Numbered from the stretch's first letter, positions 6,713 to 35,842 are shown. The stretch is DNA of 53,149 nucleotides from an uncultured Collinsella sp. (GCA_900544425.1 UQUX01000001.1:1-53149), one strand, 5' to 3'. Program-made: numbers and translations. Notes: generated from the letters alone by a model not told the origin.

Positions 6713-7744
6713 ATGGCCATGGAATTCAAACGCAAGTTGCCGATCCCCATGGAGATCCGCGAGGAAATGCCGCTTTCTGCCGAGCTTACCGCCAAAAAGC
6801 AGGCATTTGACGCCGAGGTCGCCAAAGTCTTTACCGGCGAGGACGCACGCAAGGTGCTTATCATCGGCCCGTGCTCTGCCGACCGCGAGGATTCGGTGCT
6901 TGAGTACATGAACCGACTGGCCAAGACCGCCGAGGAGGTCAAGGACAAGCTCATCATCATTCCGCGCGTCTACACCAACAAGCCGCGCACCAAGGGCACC
7001 GGCTACAAGGGCCTGCTGCACAACCCCAACCCCGAGGCTCCCGACGATCTGCTCGAGGGCGTCAAGGCCATCCGCCATATGCACCTGCGCGTTATTGAGG
7101 AAACGGGCTTCTTCACCGCCGACGAGATGCTCTATCCGTCCAACTACCAGTACCTCGTTGACCTGCTGAGCTATGTTGCCGTGGGCGCACGCTCGGTCGA
7201 GAACCAGGAGCATCGCCTGGTGTCGAGCGGCATTTCGGTACCCGTCGGCATGAAGAATCCCACTGCCGGCTCTACCACCGTTATGCTCAACTCCATTTAC
7301 GCCGCGCAGGCGCACCAGAGCTTCATCTTCCGCAACTGGGAGGTCGAGTGCGACGGCAATCCGCTCGCACACGCCGTTATGCGTGGCTACATCGGTCTCG
7401 ATGGGCGCACCTACCCCAACTACCACTACGAACACCTGGAACGCCTGGCCGAACGCTATACCGAGCATGCCGGCTATGCCAATCCGGCAGCGGTCATCGA
7501 CTGCAACCACGACAACTCGGGCAAGCGTCCGCTGGAGCAGTATCGCATTTGCAAGGAGGTGCTCGACAGCTGCCGCCGCAACGAGTCCATCTCCAAGCTG
7601 GTCAAGGGCTTTATGATCGAGTCCTACCTGGAGGACGGCAACCAGCCGGTCGACGGCGGTGTCTTTGGCAAGTCGATCACCGATCCGTGCCTGGGCTGGG
7701 AAAAGACCGACTACCTCATCCACGAGATCGCGGAACGTATTTAG
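6713..7744 (+). CDS. 3-deoxy-7-phosphoheptulonate (DAHP) synthase, class I
   Basis: IIGPCS, RVYTNKPRT..GYKG, VGARS, PVGMKN, DCNHDNS, GFMIES, GKSITDPCLGW; RBS GAGGAGG. Confidence 0.93.
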   Translation: MAMEFKRKLPIPMEIREEMPLSAELTAKKQAFDAEVAKVFTGEDARKVLIIGPCSADREDSVLEYMNRLAKTAEEVKDKLIIIPRVYTNKPRTKGTGYKGLLHNPNPEAPDDLLEGVKAIRHMHLRVIEETGFFTADEMLYPSNYQYLVDLLSYVAVGARSVENQEHRLVSSGISVPVGMKNPTAGSTTVMLNSIYAAQAHQSFIFRNWEVECDGNPLAHAVMRGYIGLDGRTYPNYHYEHLERLAERYTEHAGYANPAAVIDCNHDNSGKRPLEQYRICKEVLDSCRRNESISKLVKGFMIESYLEDGNQPVDGGVFGKSITDPCLGWEKTDYLIHEIAERI

Positions 7745-7891
7745 TTACGCGGTTTTACCAAACCGCGTAACGGCTCGACGCTGCAAACCCGCCAGAACGG
7801 CAATCTGCCTTTCAGCTTCGACGGCATGACCAAAAGGTCAATGCCGCCTCGCTTCAAGGCACCTTGCTCGCTCTGGCGGGTTTTCGCTGAC
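7744..7891 (+). repeat. Structured ~148-bp dispersed repeat, family A, copy 1
   Basis: GTTACGCGGTTT-N4-AAACCGCGTAAC hairpin plus a long nested stem; homologous to 11193-11340 and, inverted, 25621-25765. Confidence 0.9.
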
Positions 7892-8061
7892 GTTTTTCGA
7901 CCTGCATCGTTGCCAGAGTTGGCACCAATGACTAATGCGGTAGCAAGCTACGTCGGTCCGATTGATCGGCTGGGTTTTCGAGGTGCCCCAGGTCGCCGCG
8001 AAAGAGGAGCGAAGCGTACTTTGATGAACGGCAAGGTGCCGTGCCTCGGGAAGACAAACAG

Positions 8062-9267
8062 TTACGCCGAGGGTTCCTGCTGCGTGATGCAGTGGATGTT
8101 GCCGCCGCCGAAGACGACCTGCTCGGACTGAACGCCGACGCACTTGTAGACGCCCTCGCCCCAGACCTCGTCATAGATCTTCTGGAGCGTGTCAACGGCA
8201 ATCTGATCGTTCTCGTCGCCGTACTGCGGGACGATAACGCCGTGGTTGGTGACCAGGTAGTTCATGTAGGAGGCGATCAGCGGCTCGTCGGCAACGCGCG
8301 GCTCGGCGTTCTCGTCGGCGTCGATGGTGTCGCAGGAAGCCTGGTCCATGAACAGCGGGTTCACAGGCATGCAGAGCTTGTAGACCTTCATCTTGCGGCC
8401 CTTGGCGTCAACGGCGTTGGAGAGGGTCTCGTAGACGGCGTGGCATTGCTCGTAGAACGGATACTCGGGATCGTCGGTCCAGATGCAGGCCATGACGCCC
8501 GGAGCGATGAACGTAGCGACATCATCGATGTGGCCGTTGGTCTCCTCGGGGTCGATGCCCTCCTTAACCCAGATGACCTTCTCGACACCCAGGTACTCCT
8601 TGAGGTGCTCGTCCATATAGGCGCGAAGTTCCTCGCTCCAGGGCTCAAACTTCCTCTTGAACTTGGGCCAGATGGACTCGGGATCCTCTTCCTCCTCCAG
8701 AACCGCAGAGCAGGTGCGGCCTGGGGAAAGCAGGCACTGGTCGGTCACGACCACAGTGCCTTCGCCGTCGACGGTAATGGAACCGCCCTCGAGGATCATG
8801 TCATCGGGACGATAACGACGGCAGCCGGAAAGCTCAGCTATCTTAAGGGCGATCTGCTCGTCCTTGTCCCACGGGAAATAGAGGCCGTCGACGAGGCCGC
8901 CGTAGGCGTTGAAGTGCCAGTGGTTGGCGCGCTTATCGCCCTTGCCATTGATAACAAAAGTGGCAGCGGTGTCGCGGAACCAAGCGTCGTCGGTGGTCAT
9001 CTCGATAACGGTGACGTTCTCGTCTTCCTCAAAGGCGGCCTTGCAGTTGGCGTAGTCGGCCTGGTTGGCGCACATGGTGACCGGGGTGAACTCGGCGATG
9101 GCGCGAGCGATGGCGGCATACTGCTTCTGAGCCGGCTTGGCACCATGGGCCCAGGTATCGGTGCGATGGGGCCAGCCCATCCACACGCGATCCTGTGGGG
9201 CGAACTCAGCAGGCATAAAGAAGCCATCGGCCTTAGGGGTGGACTCGGACTCGGTGATCGTACGCAT
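8062..9267 (-). CDS. aguA: Agmatine deiminase
   Basis: Start moved to ATG 9267 (RBS GGAGG); MPAEF, WPHR.D.W, DAWFRD, LEGGSI..DGEGT, TNGHIDD, ASYMNY, GGGNIHCITQQ. Confidence 0.93.
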   Translation of the reverse strand: MRTITESESTPKADGFFMPAEFAPQDRVWMGWPHRTDTWAHGAKPAQKQYAAIARAIAEFTPVTMCANQADYANCKAAFEEDENVTVIEMTTDDAWFRDTAATFVINGKGDKRANHWHFNAYGGLVDGLYFPWDKDEQIALKIAELSGCRRYRPDDMILEGGSITVDGEGTVVVTDQCLLSPGRTCSAVLEEEEDPESIWPKFKRKFEPWSEELRAYMDEHLKEYLGVEKVIWVKEGIDPEETNGHIDDVATFIAPGVMACIWTDDPEYPFYEQCHAVYETLSNAVDAKGRKMKVYKLCMPVNPLFMDQASCDTIDADENAEPRVADEPLIASYMNYLVTNHGVIVPQYGDENDQIAVDTLQKIYDEVWGEGVYKCVGVQSEQVVFGGGNIHCITQQEPSA

Positions 9268-9550
9268 AAGATTTCCTCCAAATCGAACGATCGCTTGCTG
9301 CGGGCGGGTTACCCGCAGCCTAAAACCAAGAGATGGTAGGCGCCCGTTCCCCGGCAAAGGTCGGGGCGCCTGGCACCGGTTTTCACGGATGTCGCACCGG
9401 CAAGCGACGACGTAACCCGGTGCGCGGAGACAAAACGCACGAAGGATACGGAAGAGAGATTGGGGCGGGCGGTGGTTACCGGAGCAATAGCTCACACCCA
9501 CCTCAGGGAAAGGTTAGCAAACCTGTTGCTTGGGCACGCCTCCGAAGAGG

Positions 9551-9639
9551 CTAGAGTATCCCGAGTCGGGAGCGACAAGCCCGACGAAGCGTACGTTGGT
9601 ACGCGAGGAAGGTTGGAGCCCCGAATCTGGGTGCTCTAG
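9551..9639. repeat. Imperfect hairpin at the permease stop codon, sharing the GAAGCGTAC/GTACGCGA core of family A
   Basis: CTAGAGTATCC...GAAGCGTACGTTGGTACGCGA...GGGTGCTCTAG. Confidence 0.55.
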
Positions 9640-11066
9640 TCCTCCTCGGACTCCTCAGCGAGGCGCTGAGCAGCCAGCTCGGGAGTGAGACCCTTGTACT
9701 CGGTCTCGCGGCCCTTAGCACTGACGACGCGGACAACCTCGCCAATAAGCAAGAGCACGATGAAGATGACGATCATCGGGACCTTATCGCCAATCTCATC
9801 GACAGAGAACGGAATCAACGTTGCAACGATAGCCAGAATCAGCTCGATGCAGGGAATAGCCAGCATGACCTTCATCATGGCGCCCTTAAACGGGAACGTA
9901 AAGATACGCTCACGGTTGGGGTCGTTCTTACGAAGGTTGAGGAATGCCGGGAACATCGGGATGTAGGTCAGCAGCAGGAAGACAACGGAGGTACCGAAGA
10001 GCATCCAGAAGACACCGTTGGAGATGGCGTCGATGGGAACCAGCTGCAGGCACAGCACCAGGGAGGCAACGATGGCGTTGACCAGGTTGGCGCCGTTGGG
10101 CATGTCGTCATCCGAGATCATCGAGGCGAAGACCTTGGGCATGTTGCCATGTTCGGCAGCATAGCGAGCAACGGAGTTGACGCCGAAGGACCAGGCAGCC
10201 ATGTTGGCGAACAGCGTAATCAGGAAGGCGATGCAGATGACCTTAAAGATCATGGAATCGCCCACAATAGTCTGGACAGCATAAATCATGCCGTAGTCGG
10301 GATCGATGGAATCGGCCGGCACAGCAGCGCCGATGCCAAAGCCAGCGAAGAGGTAGATCACGGCGATGGACAGGCCGCCGACGATGATAGCCTTGGGGAT
10401 ATCGCGAGCGGGATCGGCCATATCGTCGGTCATGGTGCAGATGACCTCGAAGCCCATGAAGTTAAAGATGATGATCGACAGGTAGCCGAGCGCGTTGGTG
10501 TTGGTGAGCTCGGGCAAGAAGGTGACAGCGGACATATCGTTCGCGAAACCGTTCTCCATGGCGTACCAAATGCCCAAAGCGCCGACGATAACGGCAACGG
10601 CGACCTTGATGATGGCGCCGCCGTTCAGGACCCACTCGGAGTCGGCAGCCTTTGAGCGACCCATAAGATAGACAATCCACACAAAGGCAAGGTCGATACC
10701 AATCTTGGCAATCAGATTGAACTCGACGCCAAAGACCATGCCCAAAATGTCCGGGAACATAGTAGCCAGCGAGGCAATCCACAGCGGGTAGTTAACCCAG
10801 TAGTAGTACGAAATGCGGGCGCCCCACTTGTCGCCCAGGCCATCGCGTACCCAGTCGTAAATGCCACCCTCACCGTCATAGGTAGTGCCGAGCTCGGCAA
10901 CGACCATGCCATAAGGGAGCAGGAAGGTCAGAATCAGGAAGATCCACCAGAAGAACTGCTGGTTACCAATGGCAGCAGCAGGTGCGGCGGCCTCGCAAAC
11001 GAAGACGACGCAGATGATGGTCGAGATGACCGTCAAGAAGGAAAGCTTTTTCTTTCCGTCGCTCAT
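9636..11066 (-). CDS. APC-family amino acid/polyamine permease, probable agmatine:putrescine antiporter (AguD-like)
   Basis: About 12 hydrophobic segments, AELG...EGGIY.W, GFE; co-oriented upstream of aguA. Confidence 0.8.
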   Translation of the reverse strand: MSDGKKKLSFLTVISTIICVVFVCEAAAPAAAIGNQQFFWWIFLILTFLLPYGMVVAELGTTYDGEGGIYDWVRDGLGDKWGARISYYYWVNYPLWIASLATMFPDILGMVFGVEFNLIAKIGIDLAFVWIVYLMGRSKAADSEWVLNGGAIIKVAVAVIVGALGIWYAMENGFANDMSAVTFLPELTNTNALGYLSIIIFNFMGFEVICTMTDDMADPARDIPKAIIVGGLSIAVIYLFAGFGIGAAVPADSIDPDYGMIYAVQTIVGDSMIFKVICIAFLITLFANMAAWSFGVNSVARYAAEHGNMPKVFASMISDDDMPNGANLVNAIVASLVLCLQLVPIDAISNGVFWMLFGTSVVFLLLTYIPMFPAFLNLRKNDPNRERIFTFPFKGAMMKVMLAIPCIELILAIVATLIPFSVDEIGDKVPMIVIFIVLLLIGEVVRVVSAKGRETEYKGLTPELAAQRLAEESEED

Positions 11067-11192
11067 GATGAGCTCCTTCGCTCAGTCTTGGACAAATCGA
11101 GGCCCTTAAGATATTAAGGCAATTGCCGGGCCTCGGTGAGCGGGCGACAGGAGACGAGCATCCGCCGCCCGCAAACGCGCTTCTACGATGAA

Positions 11193-11340
11193 GTTACGCG
11201 GTTTTGCCAAACCGCGTAACGGCTCGACGCTGCAAACGCCCCTAAGCGGCAATCTGACGTTCAATCGTCGGTCGCGTACCCAAAGTACGCTTCCCTCCTC
11301 TTTCACGTCACCTTGCTCGCTTAGGGGCGTTTTCGCTGAC
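11193..11340 (+). repeat. Structured ~148-bp dispersed repeat, family A, copy 2
   Basis: Colinear with 7744-7891, with compensatory stem substitutions. Confidence 0.9.
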
Positions 11341-11376
11341 TTATGCTCAACCTACGATAATTCCAAACTGGGTGAG

Positions 11377-13614
11377 TTATTCGCTGTAGCGGGTGGCTAT
11401 GGCAGCTTGCACCATGCCGGCGCTCATGAGGTAAGTCACCAAGAAGTAGCCGCCGTATGCTGCCAGGAAGATTGCACAGGTGAGGCCCACGGTGCCGGCG
11501 ATGCTCATATCGCCGAATACGCTCACCAGCTCGATGATCACCTTAAGTGCCACAAAGGAGTGCGCCAGGCCCACTGCCAGCGGGAACAGGAAGAATACCG
11601 CTTGCTGCGCCATCACCGAATGGCGGATCTGGCGGTCGTCGCAGCCGATCTGTGCCAGCACACGATAGCTGCGGCTGCCGTCGGCCACGTTGGAGAGTTG
11701 CTGGATCGACAGAATCGCCGCACATGCAACGACCAATACAAAGCCGATGTAGATGGCTAGGTAGCCAATAAGACCGTTCATTTGCGCTGCTTGCGTGTAC
11801 ATCTCGGAGCGTGTGATGAAGATTCCCCACGACCCCGGCTCCTTGCCGTCAACGAGCAGATTGTCGAGCACAGTGTTTTTAATGCTCTCGTCTGCCTCAG
11901 TCGTATCCATCCCCTGTTTGTAGTTAACGAGCAGGCTACTGGAATACGGCTGCAGATTAAGTTGGGACAACAGCTCGTCGGCAACGACGACGGTACCCGG
12001 ATTACTGCCCATCGCCGAGTTGGCGATGGCCGCCGTATCTTCGTCCGACTTATCGGTTGCGGGCTTGAGCGTATGCCCGCCCAAGGTAAGGGTATGGCCG
12101 CCAGCCATATACTTGGTGTACAGGTCGACCAGCTCGCCGCCCATATCACACGTGAGCAGATACTGGTCGTGACCGATGTGCACCGGCTCCTTGCCCATCA
12201 TCTGGCGCAGTTTGTTGTACTGACTTGCCGGCGTCACAGACAGGCCTATCATGTCGGCATTGCTACCCCCGAACGCCTTGGGAAGCTTTTCGCCCATGGT
12301 CTTGCACATCTCACTTGGGGTCACCGAAGGATCCGAGCCGCCAAGCGGGTAACTCAGATACGAATCGATCTGCACATGCTCACCGGCAACATCGGCGATA
12401 TTGACCTTCTTGCCGGTCTCGTCGTTGTTGTCCGCCGACTTGCCTTTAATACCGTCTGCAACGTTATCGGGGTCGACACGATCGCCGTGCCATGCGGAGT
12501 ACAAATCGACCGTACTATCGGCCAGCACCATGCGATCGGCCTCAGACGGATTGACATACTCTTTGTAGTAGTCGAGCGTATCGGACGCGTAATAGATATA
12601 CGTCTGCGACATGTCGGCCGGATTATAGCGCTCCAGGTTTTCGTTCATCACGTTGGCGATCGACATACCGCACGTCACCGAGGTAATGGCGAGGAACAGG
12701 ATCATCGCGATGACGCCCATCGAAAAGCACACCGTATTGACCTTGGCCGAAAGCTGACGCACGGTAAACATATTGAGGCCACGCCAATACACGCTGCGCA
12801 GGCTCTGCAGCAGCTTGATGAGCATGCCCGAGAGCCCCCAGAACAGGGCAAAGGTGCCCACGGTAACCATAGCGGTCGTAATACCAAACTGGTTCATGGC
12901 CTCTTGCAGCTTGCTGTCCGTCGCGGTTAGCGGGAACCCATCACGTAACAGACGGTAATAGGCCACGCCCACAAGCGCCACGCCCACGACAAAGATGGCA
13001 ATCGCAATCCAGGGGTTGCGTGTCTTGATGCTCTCGTTGCGACGCTCGGCACCCATAAGCTCGATGAGTTTGGTACGACGCACGGCGCGAAGGTTCAGCA
13101 GTAGCGTGAGCACAAACATTACGAGCATGCAAGCAAGGGTCAGGTTGAACGCATGCACCGAGAAAAAGAAGTGGAAATTGGCGATCTGTGTCTTAAAGAG
13201 CGAGGCCGTAAAGAACGTCATGAGCTGGGAGAGTCCCACACCCAGCACAATGCCGGCGACAAAGGCCACGACCGAAACGATCACCGTCTCGAGCGCCATA
13301 ATCGTGGCGACGCGCCCGCGCCCCATGCCGAGCACCTGGTACAGGCCAAACTCCTTCTTGCGGCGTTTCATGATGAAGTTATTGGCATACACCATCAAAA
13401 AGGCCATGACACCGGCCAAAAAGTACGTTAGGTCGCCGAGTATGCTGCCCATAACCTGCGCCAAGCCCTCTTCATCGATGCCGGCGATGTCGACCTGCAT
13501 CGAGATGGTGTTAAAGGCATAGAAGACCGTGACGCCCAGGGTAAGCGTCAGCAAGTAGACGAGGTAGTCGCGGCCGGCGCGGCGGACGTTGCCCCAAGCG
13601 AGTTTACAGAGCAT
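11377..13614 (-). CDS. BceB-like (FtsX-domain) ABC permease
   Basis: Probable start MLCKLAW at 13614; RRKKEFGLYQVLGM motif, about 10 TM segments with a large extracellular domain. Confidence 0.87.
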   Translation of the reverse strand: MLCKLAWGNVRRAGRDYLVYLLTLTLGVTVFYAFNTISMQVDIAGIDEEGLAQVMGSILGDLTYFLAGVMAFLMVYANNFIMKRRKKEFGLYQVLGMGRGRVATIMALETVIVSVVAFVAGIVLGVGLSQLMTFFTASLFKTQIANFHFFFSVHAFNLTLACMLVMFVLTLLLNLRAVRRTKLIELMGAERRNESIKTRNPWIAIAIFVVGVALVGVAYYRLLRDGFPLTATDSKLQEAMNQFGITTAMVTVGTFALFWGLSGMLIKLLQSLRSVYWRGLNMFTVRQLSAKVNTVCFSMGVIAMILFLAITSVTCGMSIANVMNENLERYNPADMSQTYIYYASDTLDYYKEYVNPSEADRMVLADSTVDLYSAWHGDRVDPDNVADGIKGKSADNNDETGKKVNIADVAGEHVQIDSYLSYPLGGSDPSVTPSEMCKTMGEKLPKAFGGSNADMIGLSVTPASQYNKLRQMMGKEPVHIGHDQYLLTCDMGGELVDLYTKYMAGGHTLTLGGHTLKPATDKSDEDTAAIANSAMGSNPGTVVVADELLSQLNLQPYSSSLLVNYKQGMDTTEADESIKNTVLDNLLVDGKEPGSWGIFITRSEMYTQAAQMNGLIGYLAIYIGFVLVVACAAILSIQQLSNVADGSRSYRVLAQIGCDDRQIRHSVMAQQAVFFLFPLAVGLAHSFVALKVIIELVSVFGDMSIAGTVGLTCAIFLAAYGGYFLVTYLMSAGMVQAAIATRYSE

Positions 13615-14389
13615 CGGAGCCCTCACCGCCCATCATGGCAACGACCTCCATAATGCGGTCGAAGAACTCTCGGCGGTCGATGTCGCCGCGGCGCAGCTCG
13701 GTGAAGATCTTGCCGTCGCGAATAAACAGCACACGGCTCGTGTAGCTGGCGGCAAAGCTGTCGTGCGTGACCATGAGCACGGTGGCGCGTAGGCGGCGGT
13801 TAAGGGCCTCTAGGCTCTCGAGCAACAGGCGGGCGCTTTTGGAGTCGAGGGCGCCGGTAGGCTCGTCGGCCATGATCATGGTGGGGTCGGTGACGAGCGC
13901 GCGAGCCGCGGCAACGCGCTGCTGCTGACCGCCGGACATCTGGTAGGGATACTTGTCGAGCACCTGGCTGATGGACAGGCGCGCTGCCACATCCTGCACG
14001 CGAGTCGAGATCTCTGCCGAGTTTGTGCGGGCGATGGTGAGCGGCAGAGCGATGTTCTCGCGTGCCGTGAGCGTATCGAGCAGGTTGGAGTCCTGGAAGA
14101 TAAAGCCGAGCTCCTCGCGGCGGAACTGCGAGAGTTTGGCCTGCTTCATGCGCGTCACGTCCTGGCCGTTAATGCGGATCGTGCCGCTCGTGGCGCTATC
14201 GATGGTCGACACGCAGTTGAGCAACGTCGACTTGCCCGAGCCCGAAGCGCCCATGATGCCAACAAATTCACCGCGGTTGACGGTAAAGCTGACGTCGTTG
14301 AGCGCGCGGGTCACGTTGCCCAGCGCTCCGTATACCTTTTCGAGATGCGCGACCTCCAGTACCGGGGTCGCCATGTGCGTGGTTTGCAT
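13604..14389 (-). CDS. BceA-like ABC ATP-binding protein
   Basis: GASGSGKS, MSGGQQQR, ADEPTGALDS, VTHD. Confidence 0.92.
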   Translation of the reverse strand: MQTTHMATPVLEVAHLEKVYGALGNVTRALNDVSFTVNRGEFVGIMGASGSGKSTLLNCVSTIDSATSGTIRINGQDVTRMKQAKLSQFRREELGFIFQDSNLLDTLTARENIALPLTIARTNSAEISTRVQDVAARLSISQVLDKYPYQMSGGQQQRVAAARALVTDPTMIMADEPTGALDSKSARLLLESLEALNRRLRATVLMVTHDSFAASYTSRVLFIRDGKIFTELRRGDIDRREFFDRIMEVVAMMGGEGSDAL

Positions 14390-14462
14390 ACCGAGTCCTT
14401 TCTTGCAATTAGTCTACGGCATCTATAGTCGCAAGAAGACGAGTCGGCTACCATCGATATGG

Positions 14463-14489
14463 CTTACGCTTGCCTTACCGTTGTGTAAG
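14463..14489. promoter_or_regulatory. BceR/GraR-type response-regulator box upstream of the ABC operon
   Basis: CTTACC-GTTG-TGTAAG (14474-14489) plus another CTTAC 11 bp upstream; resembles the TNACA-N4-TGTAA site of Bce-like modules. Confidence 0.55.
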
Positions 14490-14537
14490 GTACGCGTAGC
14501 TACCCTGCCGCGTGTTGATGTTGAGAGAGGACTCCTG

Positions 14538-15527: not shown

Positions 15528-16016
15528 GAACGAGCCGTCCACACGCCCCACACAGGCGAGCCACATCCGCGCCACAAACCTTAGAAAGCCCTTAAGCTCA
15601 AAACCTTTCAAGAGTGTTACTCAATAGCCTTGACCTGCGGTTTCATCGTAACACCAAACCAGGTTAAGCCTTTCTTTAGCGCTTCTTTGAACGGTCCGCT
15701 GCATAATACTGCCAACGCACGGGACCTAGCAGCATACCCCGAGCGCAATCTATTGGTGGACATCGAGGAGGCCGCATAAGCATGCATTCTTCCAATGACG
15801 CAGCACAGCAGCCATCCCTAAAACATGCAAACCTTTTCTCCTTCCCCCCGACACAGAGAGACAGCCTCCTCGACTCCCCCACCACAAAAGCCAAACGCTC
15901 AACCGACCAGAGCCACAACTTGCGAGCATCGTTCGAAAAGCTCCAAGCATCCCTAGACAAGGCGTTCCCCGAACAGGCAAGAGCAATCTAAGCCCATCGC
16001 GCTTTATACTGATGCC

Positions 16017-16955: not shown

Positions 16956-17011
16956 CCCTTCTTCTGTCACTGCATCAAACTTGCAGGCAAACAACAGAGA
17001 GGAGCTACTAT

Positions 17012-17635: not shown

Positions 17636-17684
17636 CCCACGCGTCCCACCCTTTCAGCCCCAACGCCACAAGGGCGATTGAGCA

Positions 17685-17835
17685 GGACGGTTTGGGCGGG
17701 TCCCGTACTTAGTTTCCAAAATCATTCCGCAGCGCGAAGGCCCCCGTTGTCAACGCTTCGAAGAAGCGAGACAACGGGGGCCTTCATGCGCGAGGACGTT
17801 TTGGAAACTAAGTACGGGACCCGCCCAAACCGTCC
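17685..17835. repeat. 151-bp nested palindrome with perfect 37-bp terminal inverted repeats (REPIN/MITE-like)
   Basis: GGACGGTTTGGGCGGGTCCCGTACTTAGTTTCCAAAA (17685-17721) is the exact reverse complement of 17799-17835; inner 16-bp stem GAAGGCCCCCGTTGTC/GACAACGGGGGCCTTC. Confidence 0.9.
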
Positions 17836-17859
17836 GGTGGGATCAGAGTACCCTTGCTG

Positions 17860-18717
17860 TTACTCTGCTTTGCCCACAGAGTTGAGGTTGGTCATGCGGA
17901 TCTTAACCAGCTCGGTGATCTCACGCATGCCCTCCTTGGCCGGCTTCTTGGGATCGAAGCAGGCGGGGTTCTCGGCCATGTAGGCCATGAAGCCCTTGGT
18001 GTAGGCCTGACGCAGCTCGGTGGCGTAGTTAACCTTGCAGATGCCGTTCTTCACAGCCTCGGCAACCTGCTCATCGGGCACACCAGAGGTGCCGTGCAGA
18101 ACCAGCGGCACGTCGACGGCGTCGCGGATGGCCTTGACCACGGACTGCTCGATGTGCGGATCGCTCGTGTACACACCGTGGCTGGTGCCAACGCCAATTG
18201 CGAGGGAGGTGCAGCCGGTACGCTCGACGAACTCCTTGGCCTCGGCCGGATCGGTGTAGGGGCTCTCGCCCTCAACCGCGGGACCGTCGTCCTCCTTGCC
18301 GCCAACCTTACCGAGCTCAGCCTCGACGGGCACGCCCATGGCGCGGCCAGCGTCGGCGACGGACTTGGTCAGGGCGATGTTGTCCTCGAAGGACTCGTGC
18401 GAACCGTCGATCATGACAGAGGTGTAGCCCGTGCGGAAAGCCTGCATGCAGCGGTCATAGCCATCGCCGTGATCGAGGTGCAGAGCGACGGGCACGGAAG
18501 CGCGCTCGGCGGCAGCCTTGACCATGCCGTAGAAGTAGTCCAGACCAGCGGTCTTGATGGTGCCCGGGGTGGTCTGCATGATGACGGGGGACTTGGTCTC
18601 CTCGGCAGCGGCCAGAACGGCCATAACAAACTCGAGGTTCTCGACGTTGAACGCGCCAACGGCGTAATGACCGGCCTGAGCGTCCTTGAGCATCTTTTCG
18701 GTGGTAACAAGTGCCAT
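17860..18717 (-). CDS. Class II fructose/tagatose-1,6-bisphosphate aldolase
   Basis: Start ATG 18717 (RBS GAGGAG); AVGAFN, VALHLDHG, SVMIDGS, VEAELG, GTSHG, PLVLHG.SG, KVN. Confidence 0.9.
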   Translation of the reverse strand: MALVTTEKMLKDAQAGHYAVGAFNVENLEFVMAVLAAAEETKSPVIMQTTPGTIKTAGLDYFYGMVKAAAERASVPVALHLDHGDGYDRCMQAFRTGYTSVMIDGSHESFEDNIALTKSVADAGRAMGVPVEAELGKVGGKEDDGPAVEGESPYTDPAEAKEFVERTGCTSLAIGVGTSHGVYTSDPHIEQSVVKAIRDAVDVPLVLHGTSGVPDEQVAEAVKNGICKVNYATELRQAYTKGFMAYMAENPACFDPKKPAKEGMREITELVKIRMTNLNSVGKAE

Positions 18718-19052
18718 GAGCGTTTGCTCCTCTCCCTCGCCCGCATCTGGACATCGGGCGTAGTTGTTCACAAGGCGTTTTACCTTGCGTTTTGCTGCGA
18801 CCATTGTATGAAAATTGACGGCGTCACACGTATGAGATATCACCGGCACACAGGTCAAGACACTCGTTTTTGAAAAGCAAACGGAAGGGATTCGCGCCGG
18901 ATCCCTCTATACGACATTGCAGTTTTCAAGCGAATTATCTTTCTTTTATAGAAAAGATAAGTAATCGAAAGGCGTTTTCTTACTCAAAAAGAAAATGAAC
19001 GAAAATGGACTCATCACAATTCCTGCAAATTTCAGTTGAGAATGGAGCAGCT

Positions 19053-19856
19053 ATGGCCCACGCAACAACCCGAGCCTTCGCCGATGAGCGTCGTGCCGCC
19101 ATCATGGAAATGCTTGAGCATAATGCCTCGGTGCAGGTAGCAGAAATCGCCCAGACCTTTGGCGTGTCCTCCGTTACCGCCCGCGCCGACCTGGACGCGC
19201 TCGCCGAAGCAGGCAAGCTGCGCCGCACGCATGGCGGCGCCGTATCGCTCCACAAACGCCTAACCGTCTCCACGCAGGATCGCCGCATCAACGTCAATGT
19301 CGCCGCCAAGCAGGCCATCGCACAAAGCGCCATCGAGTTCGTCAATGACGGCGACACGCTGCTCGTCGACTCGGGCACCACGGCGCTCGAGTTCGTCCGG
19401 CTCCTCGATCAGCGCGACGCCATCACCGTCGTCACGGCCGACATTACCATTGCCGATTACATCGACGAGAGTATGCCCTCGGTCGATGTCGTCATGCTGG
19501 GCGGAGCGCTGCGCAAAGGCCATCGTTATTTGTACGGACCGCTCACTATGCAGGCGCTTCAAACGGTTCACGCCGACCTTGCCATCGTGTGCCCCGGCGC
19601 TTTTGTCCCCCGTTGCGGCTTTACGACCGACTTTCCCCAGATGGCCGAGACCAAAACGGCTATGATCGCCGCAGCCCATCAAAGCGTCGCCCTCATGGAC
19701 GCCAGTAAGGTCAACGGACGCGGCATGTACCGTTTTGCCGAGCTTGCCGACGTCGACACCATCGTGATGGACTGTGATCCCGATGGCGCCGTCGCCACCT
19801 CAATCGCCGAGACCGCCGACGACGCCCGCCCGAATCTCGTCATCGCCGGCGCTTAA
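19053..19856 (+). CDS. DeoR/GlpR-family regulator
   Basis: Start ATG 19053 (RBS GGAG); HTH VS..TARADL..L, RTHGGA, DSGTT. Confidence 0.9.
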   Translation: MAHATTRAFADERRAAIMEMLEHNASVQVAEIAQTFGVSSVTARADLDALAEAGKLRRTHGGAVSLHKRLTVSTQDRRINVNVAAKQAIAQSAIEFVNDGDTLLVDSGTTALEFVRLLDQRDAITVVTADITIADYIDESMPSVDVVMLGGALRKGHRYLYGPLTMQALQTVHADLAIVCPGAFVPRCGFTTDFPQMAETKTAMIAAAHQSVALMDASKVNGRGMYRFAELADVDTIVMDCDPDGAVATSIAETADDARPNLVIAGA

Positions 19857-19861
19857 ACAAA

Positions 19862-19898
19862 AACCACCACAAAGGTGCCTGTCCCCTTTGTGGTGGTT
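19862..19898. repeat. REP-like hairpin or bidirectional terminator with a CCTGTCCCC core
   Basis: AACCACCACAAAGG-TGCCTGTCC-CCTTTGTGGTGGTT between convergent genes; related hairpin at 6582-6608. Confidence 0.6.
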
Positions 19899-19930
19899 GT
19901 GATGGCTGAGCGTCAAAAGTGAACGTGTCG

Positions 19931-21091
19931 CTACTTGGAAAGCTCGTCGGCGAGGGCCTCGATCTGAGCGCGCGAGGCGTCGTTGAGCGAACCCAGCACG
20001 GTCACCTTGTTCTGCGCCAGAGTGATGTCCTTCATACCCTCGAGCTCCTTGGTCATAACCTTGGCGGCAGCGGGCGCCCAGGAGCCGGCCTCGACAAGCG
20101 CCACCGTACGATTCTGATAGGCGTGCCCGGCAAGCGTGTGGATAAAGGTGCTCATGAACGGGAAGATCTCGCCCTGATAGGTGATGGAAGCGAGCACCAG
20201 GCGGTCGTAGCGGAACGCATCCTCAACGGCCTCGGCCATATCGTCGCGAGCCAGGTCAAAGACGGAAACCTTCTGGCCGCGAGCCTCAAGCGCAGATGCG
20301 AGTTCCTCGACGGCAGCCTTCAGATGGCCATACACGCTCGCATAGGCAATCGTGATGCCCTCGTCCTCGGGCTGATAGCTCGACCAGGTGTTATAGGTGT
20401 CGAGGTAGTAGCCCAGGTTCTCGGTCAGCACGGGGCCGTGGAGCGGACAGATGATCTGGATGTCCAGGTCGGCGGCCTTCCTGAGCACGGCCTGCACGAA
20501 CTTGCCGAACTTACCGACGATGCCAAAGTAGTAGCGGCGTGCTTCGCAAGCCCAGCCCTCGGGATCCTCGATGTCGTTAGCACCGAACTTGCCAAAGCCG
20601 TCGGCACTAAAGAGCACCTTGTCGGTGGACTCGTAGGAGAAGAGCACCTCGGGCCAGTGCACGTTGGGAGCACCGACAAACGTCAGGCTGTGGCCGCCCA
20701 GGTCGAGCACATCGCCCTCTTTGACGACCATCTTGCGCTCGGGGAAGTCGGTGCCAAAGTAGTTGACCATCATGCGGAAGGCGCCCATGCTTGCCACGAT
20801 CTGCGCCTGGGGATAGCGCTCCATAAAGGCAGCGATGCCGGCGGAGTGATCGGGCTCCATGTGATGGATAACCAGGTAATCGGGCGTACGACCATCGAGC
20901 ACGGCCACGAGGTTGCCGAGCCACTCGTCGACAAAGTCAGCGTCAACCGAATCGGCGACAGCGATTTTATCGCCCAAGATAACGTAGCTGTTGTATGCCA
21001 TACCGTTCTCGGACACATCGTACTGGCCCTCGAACAGGTCAATGTCGTGATCGTTAACGCCAATGTAGCGGATATCCTTGGTGATCTCCAT
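19931..21091 (-). CDS. fprA: FprA-type flavodiiron protein (metallo-beta-lactamase + flavodoxin domains)
   Basis: Start ATG 21091; YNSY, HHMEPDHS, HWPE, FSADGFG, PLHG, YASVYG, GSW. Confidence 0.9.
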   Translation of the reverse strand: MEITKDIRYIGVNDHDIDLFEGQYDVSENGMAYNSYVILGDKIAVADSVDADFVDEWLGNLVAVLDGRTPDYLVIHHMEPDHSAGIAAFMERYPQAQIVASMGAFRMMVNYFGTDFPERKMVVKEGDVLDLGGHSLTFVGAPNVHWPEVLFSYESTDKVLFSADGFGKFGANDIEDPEGWACEARRYYFGIVGKFGKFVQAVLRKAADLDIQIICPLHGPVLTENLGYYLDTYNTWSSYQPEDEGITIAYASVYGHLKAAVEELASALEARGQKVSVFDLARDDMAEAVEDAFRYDRLVLASITYQGEIFPFMSTFIHTLAGHAYQNRTVALVEAGSWAPAAAKVMTKELEGMKDITLAQNKVTVLGSLNDASRAQIEALADELSK

Positions 21092-21220
21092 CAGGCAAAG
21101 CCTCCTAGATAGACAAAAGAGCCCGTCTATCATAGCACTCGTCTTCATAGCCACGGCTATCTGCCAGCATCCTTATCGATTGTTATTGAGGCGGAATATA
21201 TCGCCATTGACCTGCAAAAA

Positions 21221-22252
21221 CTATGTGCGCGGAGCTGCCGTGGTATGTCGAACGATAAGCTGGCCGGGAATACGAATGGCAACGGTTTTGTCCGTTGCCC
21301 CCGCCTTGGGAACCGCGTGCTCGAACACCTCGCGTCCACGCTGATGCAAATCGAATCGAACGGTCGTGAGCTCGTTGTGTGCCACAAAATCATCGAGCGA
21401 ATCGTCGACGCCCACCACGCTCACGTCCTCGGGCACGCGCAGACCGCTATCGCGCAGCGCTGCAATCGCGCCATTTGCCATCTGGTCGTTTGCCGCGTAA
21501 ATCGCCGTCATGGTGCGATCGTGCTCGGCCAGGTACCTGCCGGCCTCGTAGCCGCTGTTGGCAGACCAGTCGCCCTCGAGCGGCTCTGCCGGCTCGATGT
21601 GTTTACGCTCGAGTGCATCCTGCCAACCGGCGCGACGAAATTGCTCGTCGACCGAGAATGACGGGCCGCCAATATAGCGAATCTGCTCGTGCCCTAGCTC
21701 AAACAGGTGATCCATAAGCAATAGCGAGCAGCCGTAATGATCGGAGTCGACCGTGGTCACCCGCGGGTGCGCGTACATGGTAACGATGACCGTGCCAATG
21801 CCCGGCAGTGGATCAAACGTCTCAAAATCGGGCGCCATGCGACTCATGCCGATGATGATGCCGTCCACCGGCAATGCGGCCATACGACGCGTGGCCTCGG
21901 CAAGCGAAAACTCCTCGGTCTTGGACATCTCGACCAGCGTGATGGCACAATTATGCTCACGAGCAGCGCTGGCGATGCCGTCGATCATTGAGAGGTTGCC
22001 GAACTTGGTCACATCGTTGACGCACAGGCCGACCGAATGGTAACGGCCGTCGCGCAGCGAGCGACCGGCATAACTCGGACGAAAGCCGAGCTCTTGCATC
22101 GCGGCCTGTACGCGCTGGCGCGTCTGCTCGTTCACATTGGGCAAGCCGTTGGCAACGCGCGAGACCGTCTGCTGCGAAACGCCGGCAGCGCGGGCGACGT
22201 CGGCCATGGAGACCGGACGCGAACTGGTATCGTTGGACGGGCGCCTTGCCAC
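21221..22252 (-). CDS. LacI-family regulator 1 (divergent from galKT)
   Basis: MADVARAAGVSQQTVSRV HTH; GDWS, ANDQMA, VPEDVSVVGVDD. Confidence 0.93.
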   Translation of the reverse strand: MARRPSNDTSSRPVSMADVARAAGVSQQTVSRVANGLPNVNEQTRQRVQAAMQELGFRPSYAGRSLRDGRYHSVGLCVNDVTKFGNLSMIDGIASAAREHNCAITLVEMSKTEEFSLAEATRRMAALPVDGIIIGMSRMAPDFETFDPLPGIGTVIVTMYAHPRVTTVDSDHYGCSLLLMDHLFELGHEQIRYIGGPSFSVDEQFRRAGWQDALERKHIEPAEPLEGDWSANSGYEAGRYLAEHDRTMTAIYAANDQMANGAIAALRDSGLRVPEDVSVVGVDDSLDDFVAHNELTTVRFDLHQRGREVFEHAVPKAGATDKTVAIRIPGQLIVRHTTAAPRT

Positions 22253-22345
22253 AGGATCACCTTCACCCTTGCGAGATCTGAATAGCGTGAATGCCGGCCC
22301 GGGCAGAAATACATCCCGCGCCGAGGCCCGCTATCGTCGGACGCA

Positions 22346-22550
22346 TGTTAACGTACTCTACTTTTTCTATCTGCATCTCTTCTGCTTTATAAGTCCATAC
22401 GGCAGTACCGTTCACGGCTGTATTTCTACCGATCACCAGATTCTCAAAAAGTGACAAGCGTTGTGTTATGAGTACGTTAACATAGCCCGTAACGTGCGGT
22501 ATCGTGAACACTTGGTTCATACCGCTTCAAGTTGTTAACGTACTCATAAC
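22346..22550. promoter_or_regulatory. LacI-type operators TGTTAACGTACTCA (3 copies) in the lacI1/galK interval
   Basis: 22346 TGTTAACGTACTC; 22465-22482 GTTATGAGTACGTTAACA and 22533-22550 TGTTAACGTACTCATAAC are exact inverted copies. Confidence 0.75.
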
Positions 22551-22590
22551 GACGCAAAACTCATCCGTGCGCGCCAAGGAAAGGACTCCC

Positions 22591-23796
22591 ATGACCACCA
22601 CCGACGAAAAGACATTCGCCACGCTCACCAAGCTATTTGAGAAGGAGTTTGGGCCCATCGGCGATCGCCAGGTGCTCTATGTGCACGCACCCGGCCGTTC
22701 CGAGATCAGCGGCAACCACACCGACCACGAGGGTGGCCACGTTATCGCCGGCTCGCTCGATGTCGCCGTTGACGGCATTGCCGTGGCGACCGACTCCAAC
22801 AAGATTCGCGTCGCCGACGAGGGCTATCCTACGTTTGAGATCACGCTCGACACGCTGGATATTCAAGAGTCCGAGAAGGGCACGTCCGCGAGCCTCGTCC
22901 GCGGCATGGCCCACGAAATCGCTGCTCTGGGCGTTGAGCCCCAGGGCTTCGACTTCGCCTTCACCTGCTCCGTCCCCTCGGGCGGCGGCCTTTCGAGCTC
23001 CGCTGCTGTCGAGGCGGCATACGGTCGCGCCATGGAGGCGCTCTGGGGCGCACCAGCCATCGAGCCCGTCGCGCTCGCCCAGATGAGCCAACGCACCGAA
23101 AACAACTATTACGGCAAGCCCTGCGGTCTGATGGACCAGGCCGCCGTTTGCTTGGGCGGCCTCGCCTACATGGACTTTGAGGACCAGACTCAGCCTAAAA
23201 CCCAGAAGCTCGAGCTCAACTTTGAGGATCACGGTTATGCGCTCGTGCTCGTTAAGGTTGGCGCCGACCATGTGGCCGCCACCGATGACTACGCCGCCGT
23301 TCCGCGCGAGATGCAGGACGTCGCTGCCGAGTTCGGCAAGGCACGCCTGTGCGAGGTAAACGTGGCGGACTTTGACGCCAAGCTCCCCGAGCTGCGCGCC
23401 AAGCTGGGCGACCGCGCCTGCCTGCGCGCCGTTCACTACTGGTACGAAAACGGCCTGGTCGATAAGCGCTGGGCCGCCCTGAACGCCGGCGACATCGATC
23501 AGTTCCTGGTCCTGACGCGCGAGTCCGGCGCCAGCTCTGCCATGTACCTACAGAATGTCGTTGCCAAGCTGGGCTCCGAGCAGCCCTCGATGTATGCCCT
23601 GGCACTGGCCGAGCACGTGCTCGACGGCCGTGGCGCCGTCCGTATCCACGGTGGCGGCTTTGGTGGCACCATCCAGGCCTTCGTGCCGCTCGACCTGGTC
23701 GACACCTTCATCGCCAAGATGAACGGCTGGCTGGGCGAGGGCTCTGCCCGCCACTACGCAATTTCTGACAAGGGGGCTTACGCGGCATGGCTGTAA
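22591..23796 (+). CDS. galK: Galactokinase
   Basis: Start ATG 22591 (RBS AAGGA); APGRSEISGNHTDH, PSGGGLSSSAA, CGLMDQ, RIHGGGFGG. Confidence 0.93.
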   Translation: MTTTDEKTFATLTKLFEKEFGPIGDRQVLYVHAPGRSEISGNHTDHEGGHVIAGSLDVAVDGIAVATDSNKIRVADEGYPTFEITLDTLDIQESEKGTSASLVRGMAHEIAALGVEPQGFDFAFTCSVPSGGGLSSSAAVEAAYGRAMEALWGAPAIEPVALAQMSQRTENNYYGKPCGLMDQAAVCLGGLAYMDFEDQTQPKTQKLELNFEDHGYALVLVKVGADHVAATDDYAAVPREMQDVAAEFGKARLCEVNVADFDAKLPELRAKLGDRACLRAVHYWYENGLVDKRWAALNAGDIDQFLVLTRESGASSAMYLQNVVAKLGSEQPSMYALALAEHVLDGRGAVRIHGGGFGGTIQAFVPLDLVDTFIAKMNGWLGEGSARHYAISDKGAYAAWL

Positions 23797-25415
23797 TGAC
23801 TGACGTGCGCGAGGCCGCGCAGAACCTGATCGAGTACGCTATCCACCGATCGATGATCGGACAGGACGATCGCATCTGGGCCTACAACACCATTCTGGAG
23901 TGCATCGGCGCCACGGGTCCCGCGCTCGACATGACCTGGGCGCTCCAGGTTGAGAAACTCTCGCTCTTGCATCCCGATACCCTCCCCGACTTTGACCTGG
24001 AGGGCACGCTTGCCGCGCTTTCCGAGGCTGCCGTCGCAAACGGTGCTGCCGAGGACACGGCGTCGGGCCGCGACCGCATCGCCATGCGCATCATGGGCGC
24101 GCTCATGCCGAGGCCTTCGGTTGTAAACGAGGAGTTCAACGGCCGCATGGGCGTCGACGAGCCCCGCGCCGCGACCGACTGGTTCTACGGCCTATGCTGT
24201 GACGCCGGCTACGTGCGCCGCGCCGCCATCGCGCGCAACATCAAATGGAGCACCCCCACCAACTGGGGCGACCTCGAGATCACTATCAACCTGTCGAAGC
24301 CCGAGAAGGACCCGCGCGATATCGCCGCGGCAGGTGCAGCCAAGAACACGGGCGAGAAGTATCCCGCCTGCCAGCTCTGCATCGAAAACGAGGGCTATCC
24401 CGGACGCTCCGCCGCAGCCGACGGCGGCGCCCATCCCGCCCGCCAGAACCTACGCGTTATCCCCATTCAGCTCAACGACGAGCGCTGGGGCTTCCAGTAC
24501 AGCCCGTACGCATACTTTAACGAGCACTGCATTGCTATGAGCTCCGAGCATCGCCCGATGCACGTCGACCGCAAGGGGCTGACCTGCCTGCTCGATTTTG
24601 TGGACCTGTTCCCGCACTACTTTATTGGCTCCAACGCCGACCTGCCCATCGTGGGCGGCTCGATTCTGTCGCACGACCACTTCCAGGGCGGCGCGCACGA
24701 GTTCCCCATGATGCATGCCGCCGAGGTCTCGCAGTTTAGCGTGCCCGGCTTTGACCAGGTCAGCGGCACCGTGTTGCAGTGGCCGCTTTCGGTGCTGCGA
24801 CTGCGCTCGCACGACCGCACCCAGCTGCTCGATGCTGCCGAGAAGATTATCCTCGCCTGGCGCGAGTGGACCGATGAGTCGGTGGGCGTTATCGCACACA
24901 CAGCCGACGGCGTAGCGCACAACACCGTAACGCCCGTCATCCGCCGCGTCGACTCCCGCGGCAACGCCGGCGGCGAAATCTACGAGGCCTACCTGGCGCT
25001 TCGCTGCAATATCACGACCGACGAGCATCCGCTGGGCGTATTCCACCCGCATGCCGAGTACCACCACATTAAAAAGGAGAACATCGGCCTGATCGAGGTC
25101 ATGGGCCTGGCAATTCTGCCGCCGCGCCTGGTTCCCGAGCTTGGCGCTGTCCGCGAGCATCTGCTGGCAGCCAAGGCCGATGCCAGCTACGACCTTGCCG
25201 GTGCACTCGAGGGCGATGATCTATGCCGCAGCCACGCCGCATGGGCCGAGGATGTCTATGCCCGCCGCGCCAACGAGCTTACAGCCGACAACGCCATCGA
25301 TATCCTGCACGAGGAGGTCGGCGTGGTGTTTGGCCACGTGCTCGACAACGCCGGCGTCTTTAAGTGGGACGAAGCCGGCCGCGCCGCCCAACAGCGCTTT
25401 ATCGACTCGCTATAG
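23787..25415 (+). CDS. galT: Galactose-1-phosphate uridylyltransferase (type II)
   Basis: ITINLSKPEKDP, YPACQLC.ENEG, QYSPY.YFNEH, GSNADLPIVGGSILSHDHFQGG, HIKKENIGLIEVMG. Confidence 0.95.
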   Translation: MAVMTDVREAAQNLIEYAIHRSMIGQDDRIWAYNTILECIGATGPALDMTWALQVEKLSLLHPDTLPDFDLEGTLAALSEAAVANGAAEDTASGRDRIAMRIMGALMPRPSVVNEEFNGRMGVDEPRAATDWFYGLCCDAGYVRRAAIARNIKWSTPTNWGDLEITINLSKPEKDPRDIAAAGAAKNTGEKYPACQLCIENEGYPGRSAAADGGAHPARQNLRVIPIQLNDERWGFQYSPYAYFNEHCIAMSSEHRPMHVDRKGLTCLLDFVDLFPHYFIGSNADLPIVGGSILSHDHFQGGAHEFPMMHAAEVSQFSVPGFDQVSGTVLQWPLSVLRLRSHDRTQLLDAAEKIILAWREWTDESVGVIAHTADGVAHNTVTPVIRRVDSRGNAGGEIYEAYLALRCNITTDEHPLGVFHPHAEYHHIKKENIGLIEVMGLAILPPRLVPELGAVREHLLAAKADASYDLAGALEGDDLCRSHAAWAEDVYARRANELTADNAIDILHEEVGVVFGHVLDNAGVFKWDEAGRAAQQRFIDSL

Positions 25416-25469
25416 AGCACGGGCCCGAACGTTCAACAGCAGCCCGCACGACATAACCACCTACACGAC

Positions 25470-25510
25470 AACGGTGCCCGCCGGCAACATCGCCGGCGGG
25501 CGCCGTTTTT
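25470..25510 (+). terminator. Terminator after galT
   Basis: AACGGTGCCCGCCGGC...GCCGGCGGGCGCCGTTTTT. Confidence 0.8.
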
Positions 25511-25515
25511 GAGTG

Positions 25516-25584
25516 TAGTCATTGGGGTCATTCTTAAGGGGCGTTCTTAAACGACTAGTCATTAAAGAGCGTCCCCAATGACTA
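25516..25584. repeat. TAGTCATTGGGG/CCCCAATGACTA palindromic repeat cluster
   Basis: Terminal inverted repeat; internal GTTCTTAAACGACTAGTC recurs inverted at 30198-30215, followed there by GTCCCCAATGACTA; CCAATGACTA also at 7925. Confidence 0.65.
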
Positions 25585-25620
25585 CTTGCGACCAAGGCAA
25601 CGCCGGTGTCTTGGCAACGA

Positions 25621-25765
25621 CAGCGAAAACGCCCCTAAGCGAGCAAGGTGACGTGAAAGAGGAGGGCATTGAGCTTTTGGTCATGCCCGACGATTGAACG
25701 TCAGATTGCCGCTTAGGGGCGTTTGCAGCGTCGAGCCGTTACGCGGTTTGGTAAAACCGCGTAAC
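25621..25765 (-). repeat. Structured dispersed repeat, family A, copy 3 (inverted, next to the lacC stop)
   Basis: Reverse complement has outer stems like copy 2 and an inner hairpin like copy 1. Confidence 0.9.
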
Positions 25766-26702: not shown

Positions 26703-26755
26703 ATTGAACTCCTGTTCCGGGGCGGCATGACCCACCCCAAACATACGATAGCTCG

Positions 26756-35834: not shown

Positions 35835-35842
35835 AGTAGGAC

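Follow-up and report, generated by a model that had tools for sequence, protein, structure and literature searches.

REP sequences and their mosaic assemblies (BIMEs) are transcribed intergenic repeats of gene 3' ends that stabilize or terminate the upstream mRNA and form recombination hot spots. In a 2015 study, Liang, Rudd and Deutscher reportedly found that a large number of E. coli REPs are situated no more than 15 nt from a stop codon and influence translation. Correia, ERIC and BOX repeats, the latter two modular in build, are likewise dispersed, transcribed and hairpin-forming, measure 100–160 nt, and alter mRNA processing. According to two reports, the 147 copies of TRIT in mycobacteria keep a very narrow distance from the stop codon and coincide with transcript 3' ends (PMC3152330), and TRIT is now thought to be a substrate of RNase III, while primary 3' termini have been linked to Correia and REP elements, with Correia processed by RNase III (PMC13714241). 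Long hairpin repeats (Gmet_R10xx) are further listed in the 2009 genome paper of Geobacter metallireducens (PMC2700814). Here, we describe family A, a structured repeat that was predicted from the sequence of a 53,149-nt contig of Collinsella sp. (hereafter the window, meaning this whole stretch of DNA). The genome to which the window belongs comprises 1.95 Mb in 209 contigs and is 87% complete. Family A proves to be a genuine repeat of Collinsella and related Coriobacteriia, ancient, modular and present in many copies; it is co-transcribed with the upstream gene and behaves as a direction-specific end or processing point.

Family A resembles TRIT in being a many-copy, conserved palindromic element of an actinobacterial lineage that keeps a set distance from stop codons and is found at 3' ends. 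TRIT is a single hairpin of ~50 nt, mostly bidirectional, centred at about −8 and lying partly in coding sequence, and reported only in Mycobacterium; family A, which is compared with it by descriptions only, is ~170 nt long, modular and strand-specific (155 versus 28 bits), and starts at or after the stop. From REP/BIME, it differs in its greater length, its invariant unpaired motifs, its near-complete sense orientation and its replication polarity, as well as in having no GTAG foot and no tie to RAYT or Y1 proteins. Correia, ERIC and BOX elements, unlike family A, possess terminal inverted repeats and target duplications (TA in the case of Correia) and do not dock to stop codons this precisely, and no sequence relation to them was found (no Rfam match).

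A modular unit with a conserved fold

The full unit of ~170 nt consists of a 12-bp hairpin (H), a linker, a rod of ~100 nt, the pentamer TCGCT and a tail of ~25 nt. The sequence of H varies by compensatory changes (CGCGG, CGGCG, CCGCCG and others), and the linker terminates in CGACGCTGC, whose invariance is at least 95% across 77 copies taken from two bacterial families. The helices of the rod differ freely among copies and are capped by one of three interchangeable apical hairpins (GTCGCGTAC..GTACGC, GGCATGACC..GGTCAATGCC or GGGCGCGACC..GGTCAGCGCCC), whereas the letters of its internal loops are partly kept (..TG.C.TTCA.. and ..TTTCA.G.CA..); invariant unpaired motifs recur in both bacterial families. 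Tails fall into two or three related types. The module of H plus linker also occurs alone, in tandem, or truncated within the loop or the 3' arm. In copy 1 of the window, TTTTCGCTGACGTTTTT stands behind the rod as a terminator-like tail; AAAC/GTTT variants, including copy 1, end in GUUUUCGCUGACGUUUUU, and GCGG/CCGC variants are without a U run.

The original prediction placed three copies in the window, each with a 12-bp hairpin GTTACGCGGTTT/AAACCGCGTAAC followed by a long interrupted stem, and coordinates, hairpin and stem were all borne out (Table 1). A model of the family scored the three copies at 140–155 bits and the opposite strands of the same copies at 28–29 bits, and folding was far more stable than expected (z = −9.4 to −9.9; 0 of 200 shuffles as stable). 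Direct reading of the sequence confirmed the four compensatory pairs that distinguish the outer stem CCGCCAGA/TCTGGCGG from GCCCCTAA/TTAGGGGC and the two that distinguish TGCCTT/AAGGCA from TGACGT/ACGTCA in the next stem, both exactly as predicted, and likewise the mosaic nature of copy 3, which combines the stems of copy 2 with the apical hairpin of copy 1. Copies 1 and 3 also begin, as had been noted, in sense orientation at a stop codon: the TAG of the DAHP synthase gene overlaps the first base of copy 1 (distance −1), and copy 3 starts 1 nt after the TAG of the gene for a PfkB-family kinase. Two details required revision. The predicted unit length of 148 nt is too short, since the ~25-nt tail is homologous among copies, and GGCAATC and CCTTGCTCGC, which had been taken as pure linker, contain the pair CGGCAA/TTGC(T)CG, which covaries elsewhere (for example, as GGACAA/TTGTCTC).

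Covariation was assessed in 77 copies, which came from the own genome, from three congeners and from ten genomes that lie outside the closest group. Paired cells made up 94.4% of the alignment's helices, compared with 70.5% in shuffles and 32–40% when partners were slid; 45 of the 49 pairs showed changes on both sides, and none of 500 shuffles attained any of the five measures used. All 12 pairs of the H helix covary, and 97.8% of its cells are paired. The 77-copy alignment was fitted to the model, which favours structure; in an unfitted MAFFT alignment of 17 copies, double changes were already present in 31 of the 49 pairs. Compensatory pairs are also seen at orthologous sites, where AAAC/GTTT in one species corresponds to AAGC/GCTT in another. 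Together, these data strongly support the proposal that structure rather than stem sequence is kept, and the covariation on which that proposal had been made to depend holds in the larger alignment.

Family size and distribution

A profile built from the three window copies gave 36 matches in the own genome, which contains 26 hairpin-plus-linker modules and 27 element starts that were used to analyse placement. Copy number is given as about 27–36 in the own genome, where several contigs end inside a family A copy, and as 36–43 in complete or near-complete relatives. A covariance model constructed from 17 own-genome copies yielded 41–43 matches in each of three near-complete relatives, six weak matches in one congener and none in another. 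Extending the search to 150 genomes of the class, we obtained matches in 28 of 30 genomes of the same family and 16 of 24 genomes of a second family of the order, and in none of the 96 genomes from 21 other families of the class searched with this model. Two complete genomes of the second family carry 36 and 41 matches, and a Gordonibacter record displays the same architecture behind a TGA stop.

The Rfam comparison suggested at the outset, which took in Collinsella-1 (RF01700), produced no gathering-score match in the window and, for five own-genome loci, nothing relevant at E≤5; the only matches were chance ones (mir-1909 and snoRNAs). No description of family A was found in the open-access literature on repeats of Collinsella, Eggerthella or Coriobacteriia. 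Family A is thus apparently an undescribed member of the gene-end repeat class.

Family A docks to the stop codons of housekeeping genes

In the own genome, 22 of the 27 starts lie at −1 to +7 nt from the stop codon of a same-strand open reading frame of at least 146 codons; copy 2 of the window, antisense between two minus-strand genes and with no sense gene before it, is one of five exceptions. In the complete relative G021, for which genes were predicted with a simple codon-usage gene finder, 25 of 27 elements have the same orientation as the upstream gene, and for 19 of 27 the gap to it is no more than 7 nt. Copies from the second family show the same placement, TGA stops included. The upstream genes have housekeeping functions (DAHP synthase, GlmM-type mutase, HtpG, RpoC, MetRS, QueA, Dtd, NAD synthase, ABC-F and others), and Pfam matches were obtained for 17 of 18.

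The stops preceding the 22 own-genome copies are TAG in 15 cases and TAA in seven. We considered whether this choice reflects a TA or TAG target and rejected the idea: because TGA accounts for only 12% of stops in the genome and also precedes copies of the second family, most of the bias is background. The stop usage of the own genome is itself unusual for a GC content of ~60%, with TAG at 47%, TAA at 41% and TGA at 12% across 1375 genes predicted with a simple gene finder.

Transcription of family A

Transcription was examined in stranded raw reads from a related strain of 88% likeness (two runs, X22 and X23). Sense depth was 173–176 at the gene end before copy 1 (7660–7684), rose inside copy 1 to ~300–490 in X22 and up to 639 in X23, values inflated by reads of other copies, stood at 303–310 at position 7852 in the rod, and was 28–31 at position 7908, which is located in the tail 17 nt beyond the end of the model. 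Antisense depth at 7660–7684 and 7908 was 48–69 and 83–92, respectively. Sense RNA is consequently about six-fold lower just past copy 1, whereas antisense depth changes little. At copy 2, minus-strand RNA (first mate on the plus strand) measured 331 and 195 before the element and 174 and 160 after it in the two runs, so that minus-strand transcription reads through this antisense copy.

Reads run from the upstream gene into the element, and at another gene, on contig C64, 614 reads join the gene end to the hairpin. Depth over the element is ~1.7–2.8 times that of the gene body, multi-copy pile-up included. Among the three identities offered by the original prediction, a 3'-untranslated-region RNA element fits best, given the sense position at 0–7 nt after stops, the read-in from genes and the drop in sense RNA behind the element. 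A discrete, abundant non-coding RNA is not supported, as depth is of the order of that of the neighbouring mRNA despite pile-up. Breaks between assembled RNA contigs (X3 and X9) were also considered as transcript ends and set aside as an uninformative effect of repeats on assembly.

Recombination and site occupancy

Chimeric copies with mismatched arms (C102 and L082) show that recombination takes place within the element. In the window, the segment of 3.3 kb that separates the direct copies 1 and 2 and contains two minus-strand genes is absent in three relatives (L065, L066 and L070); these possess one element only, and the DNA that here follows copy 2 comes next. Behind the DAHP synthase gene, an element is present at all 30 loci of relatives, in different variants and in at least five downstream contexts; no element was found behind this gene in the more distant congeners G014, G015, G045 and G050. 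Most of the 30 loci behind the pfkB gene (the own locus included) carry the element, several with truncated or duplicated hairpins. Of the marks of a classical MITE, a target duplication was not detected at the one near-empty orthologous site (L361), and a full-length parent element with a gene between its ends was not seen in the own genome.

Two further observations concern these sites. Another palindromic repeat, AGAATGAGCGTGGATAATCTCCCG...GGGAGATTATCCACGCTC, can take the same gene-end positions in place of family A (L016:1761-1833; also L079, L087, L363, L369 and L373). Separately, L074, L075, L078, L079 and L085 share a deletion behind the DAHP synthase gene that joins the hairpin GTTACGCGG to the rod GCCGCATTTGG at a CGCGG microhomology, the rest of the hairpin and the linker being gone.

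A recombining 3'-end module as the favoured interpretation

We propose that family A is a recombining 3'-end module, serving as terminator, processing site or protection for the message in the manner of TRIT, Correia and REP-BIME, and we give this interpretation an even chance of being correct. Termination or processing is the function that we infer. The 12-bp hairpin after the stop and the ~100-nt rod would together make up the message end. Sense transcripts may be stopped or processed by this structure, assisted in some variants by a U-rich run behind the rod; the long double-stranded rod is the kind of substrate that RNase III cuts, and the hairpin that remains could shield the mRNA 3' end. 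Antisense transcription would pass through. At the DNA level, copies would act as dispersed homology that recombines, swaps modules and brackets segments varying between species, and the family probably spreads by recombination rather than through a dedicated enzyme.

Collinsella and Eggerthellaceae are common human gut bacteria in which transcript ending has hardly been studied. A conserved module of ~170 nt that follows dozens of their housekeeping genes would largely decide where messages end and how stable they are. Recognition of family A would be useful for annotation and for expression constructs. Its copies also break assemblies and mark points of segment exchange or loss between species, and they therefore bear on strain variation.

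Several observations weigh against this interpretation. With replichores assigned from the GC skew of 40 sampled 20-kb stretches, 25 of 27 elements in G021 are co-oriented with replication, compared with 409 of 602 predicted genes (68%), a difference with a binomial P of ~0.003 for loci that are not all independent. In G194, 34 of 36 elements agree with the sign of the skew, compared with 87 of 144 sampled genes (~60%); co-orientation thus amounts to 92–94% of copies in these two genomes. Folding favours the bottom strand in 74 of 77 copies under RNA parameters (mean −71.6 versus −61.6 kcal/mol) and in 72 of 77 under DNA parameters, partly because the internal loops of the sense strand are pyrimidine-rich and several subfamilies contain C.A mismatches. 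Counting G.T pairs (102, of which 69 fall at three fixed positions) against A.C mismatches (81) revealed no clear overall asymmetry between the strands and hence no support for the sense RNA. Neither the polarity nor the folding asymmetry is predicted by a plain 3'-untranslated-region function, and a plain terminator needs no 170 nt with invariant single-stranded motifs. The pfkB site is dispensable, one species having 17 nt in place of the element and three having other repeats. In the RNA data, reads of many copies pile up, the exact 3' end cannot be placed in hairpin, rod or tail with reads of a related strain, and no element coincided with a cluster of RNA molecule starts or ends among those listed.

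The polarity could reflect a single-stranded-DNA stage. Selection against having the stronger hairpin on the template of the lagging strand could explain it just as well, as could a preference for housekeeping genes on the leading strand, and the same three options apply to the strand asymmetry. In G200, 37 of 41 copies agree in the best two-block split (0 of 500 shuffles as high), in a genome whose GC skew is too noisy for independent confirmation of the pattern. On own-genome contigs, with the contig-wide GC skew as a noisy proxy, ten copies were co-oriented and five opposed, and 12 copies on short or weak-skew contigs were left uncounted; the exceptions to the polarity include window copies 1 and 2. 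Docking to stops, co-orientation with replication and better folding of the bottom strand form a combination that goes beyond the usual REP-like explanations and makes it testable whether family A acts as RNA, as folded DNA, or as both.

Alternative explanations

The main competitor is a selfish single-stranded-DNA element that follows a REPIN- or IS200/IS605-like logic by means of a putative enzyme of its own, which we consider a possible but clearly less probable account. Such an element would insert into the lagging-strand template, with the first tolerated site lying behind the stop of a leading-strand gene, and its effects on RNA would be secondary. This would accommodate a polarity that exceeds the gene bias in G021 and G194 and recurs in G200, the H module found alone, in tandem or truncated, the differences in site occupancy among species, and the conserved single-stranded motifs beside hairpins, as are found at the sites of HUH enzymes. 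The distribution of candidate enzymes does not follow that of the element, however. The Y1 domain (PF01797) was not found in four of five complete or near-complete second-family genomes, which carry 15–41 copies, and RAYT-like proteins occur in 27 of 30, 2 of 24 and 3 of 13 genomes of three families in which family A occurs in 28 of 30, 16 of 24 and 0 of 13, respectively. Moreover, there is no fixed target, as the gap to the stop ranges from −1 to +7 and the flanking bases vary; the near-empty site lacks a target duplication, no parent element was seen in the own genome, and polarity in the own genome is only ten against five by the noisy proxy.

More specific versions of a mobile element were also rejected. 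The proposal of a REPIN-like substrate for a RAYT is unsupported as such: the RAYT-like gene is flanked by a different repeat of the GTAG type, the phyletic patterns are mismatched, and genomes without Y1 hold many copies. A short GTAG-footed REP palindrome of 20–40 nt does not apply, as H starts with GTT(A/C/G)CG, with no GTAG, and the unit measures ~170 nt. PATE elements derived from IS200/IS605 would have similar subterminal hairpins at both ends, a fixed target of 4–5 nt against the left end and TnpA (Y1) in the genome; family A possesses a single hairpin, at the 5' end, preceded by varying bases and a gap of −1 to +7, and Y1 is absent in four of five genomes.

The own genome encodes three Y1-domain genes. 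One, a RAYT-like gene of 265 amino acids (C49:11418-12215), is flanked by GTAGCTAATTTGGGACGGGGC..AGCTAC repeats, which are not family A; in its paralogue on C62, the HUH histidine and the tyrosine seem, on visual inspection, to be missing. A GTAG-footed, REP-like family to which these flanking repeats are related (GTAGTCATTGGGGACGTTCTTAAACGACTAC type), often arranged as inverted doublets, is present in the window at 25515-25585 and 30194-30219, and its members often follow family A.

Improbable, in our judgement, is a host DNA site of the BIME type, at which gyrase, a nucleoid protein or a replication or recombination factor would act at the ends of transcription units, with polarity set by replication. 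The strong replication polarity, the invariant CGACGCTGC and TCGCT that flank a variable rod, the better folding of the bottom strand with DNA parameters and the persistence over two bacterial families are all compatible with such a site, but it predicts neither the tight stop distance nor the sense orientation, and individual sites are dispensable.

An origin as attC-like recombination sites of an integron-like cassette system is more improbable still. It would account for the sense position behind open reading frames, the kept structure with variable sequence and swappable apical part, the better-folding bottom strand, and the loss in three relatives of the two-gene segment between direct copies; that loss, however, is equally explained by homologous recombination between direct repeats. 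Family A follows core housekeeping genes at dispersed chromosomal positions, with no cassette arrays, and no integron integrase was found in the own genome, 87% complete as it is (best TIGR02249 score 71 bits against a cut-off of 265). The attC core boxes RYYYAAC/GTTRRRY are lacking as well, the base of the rod reading GCAAAC.../...GTTTTCGC or GCGCGG.../...CCGCTCGC instead.

A family of discrete trans-acting small RNAs is very improbable: the structure covaries strongly and the element is transcribed, but its dozens of copies have different helices, no promoter-like site precedes the three window copies, reads enter from the upstream gene at a depth only modestly above that of the gene body, and Rfam offers no match.

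Possible kinship with Geobacter-type repeats

The recombining 3'-end module proposed for family A may have relatives in another phylum. In 125 metagenome loci with the central palindrome GRCGTAGCGCTGCTACGCC, Geobacter-type repeats form an intergenic hairpin of ~113–125 nt that at many loci lies behind a stop codon, as family A does. They share with the family A rod the same order of motifs, namely GCAATCT, CGTT.A..TC.TCGG, an apical GCGTA-loop-TACGC followed by TCC, and ACCTTGC. Unlike family A, they have neither an H hairpin nor a CGACGCTGC linker in front, and GRCGTAGCGCTGCTACGCC is absent from family A, one of whose three apical types resembles it.

Applied to 68 Geobacter-type loci, the family A model reached at best 21 bits, at a position away from the motif. 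A reverse model built from eight metagenome copies did match family A rods on the sense strand and in register, with 35.1 bits (E ~1e-7) for a second-family copy and 21–26.5 bits for nine others, in a score range where an unrelated palindrome also reached 25 bits. Judged from these sequence likenesses, kinship between the two is plausible and may serve as a lead. A broader claim, that both are branches of one ancient cross-phylum class of stop-docked, strand- and replication-polar folded elements with a better-folding bottom strand, strikes us as rather unlikely. If it were true, it would imply either single-stranded-DNA recombination or transposition by a system other than Y1 or IntI, or else a device linked to translation termination, with CGACGCTGC and TCGCT as contact points for a protein or nuclease.

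Features of the window

The modules of the three copies and their surroundings are given in Table 1. A decayed fourth copy, which was not detected by the family model, lies directly behind the TAA of a convergent gene (8062-9501, minus strand).

Table 1. Positions of family A copies, their modules and adjoining features in the window
Feature	Position	Strand	Details
Gene upstream of copy 1, DAHP synthase class I	6713-7744	+	Open reading frame; Pfam PF00793, E=6e-42
Copy 1	7744-7888	+	154.6 bits with the family model
Copy 1, module H	7744-7771	+	Perfect 12-bp hairpin, 4-nt loop
Copy 1, linker	7772-7784	+	GGCTCGACGCTGC
Copy 1, rod	7785-7888	+	Apical hairpin GGCATGACC..GGTCAATGCC; ends in conserved TCGCT
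Copy 1, 3' tail	7889-7914	+	GACGTTTTTCGACCTGCATCGTTGCC; homologous to the tails of other copies
Segment between direct copies 1 and 2	7892-11192		3.3 kb; two minus-strand genes
Decayed fourth copy	~7960-8061	-	No H module, apical part deleted; alignment to C39_13336, C193_1472 and copy 2
Copy 2	11193-11337	+	139.9 bits; composed of H, linker and a rod capped by GTCGCGTAC..GTACGC
Copy 2, 3' tail	11338-11361	+	GACTTATGCTCAACCTACGATAAT; commonest tail type
GTAG-footed REP-like inverted doublet beside copy 3	25515-25585	-	Not family A
Copy 3, 3' tail	25590-25621	-	Second type, GTCGTTGCCAAGACACCGGCGTTGCC...
Copy 3	25622-25765	-	153 bits
Gene upstream of copy 3, PfkB-family carbohydrate kinase	25767-26744	-	Open reading frame; PF00294

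Other repeats in the window are distinct from family A. Hairpins with a CCTGTCCC-type loop (AAACCTGTCCCTTTTTGGTAGGTTT and ACCACCACAAAGGTGCCTGTCCCCTTTGTGGTGGT) are located at 6564-6613 and 19860-19898; RNA reads show hundreds to ~2000 loose ends and cross-joints at these positions, which resemble a further terminator-like repeat present in multiple copies. A palindromic repeat of 68 nt, TCTGTAACA...TGTTACAGA, occurs in seven copies at 35687-35835, 40696-40763, 45424-45572 and 50726-50874, between paralogous and themselves repeated blocks of genes resembling those for sugar uptake and glycosidases; they may serve as operators or as sites of antitermination. At 17685-17721 and 17799-17835, an inverted repeat of 37 nt is perfect and has a spacer of 77 nt, and RNA molecules start and stop in clusters near it, at 17730-17744, 17788-17791 and 17837-17841. 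Finally, a very sharp RNA end was observed at position 15729, where molecules whose first mate lies on the minus strand stop in 228 of 987 and 170 of 824 cases.

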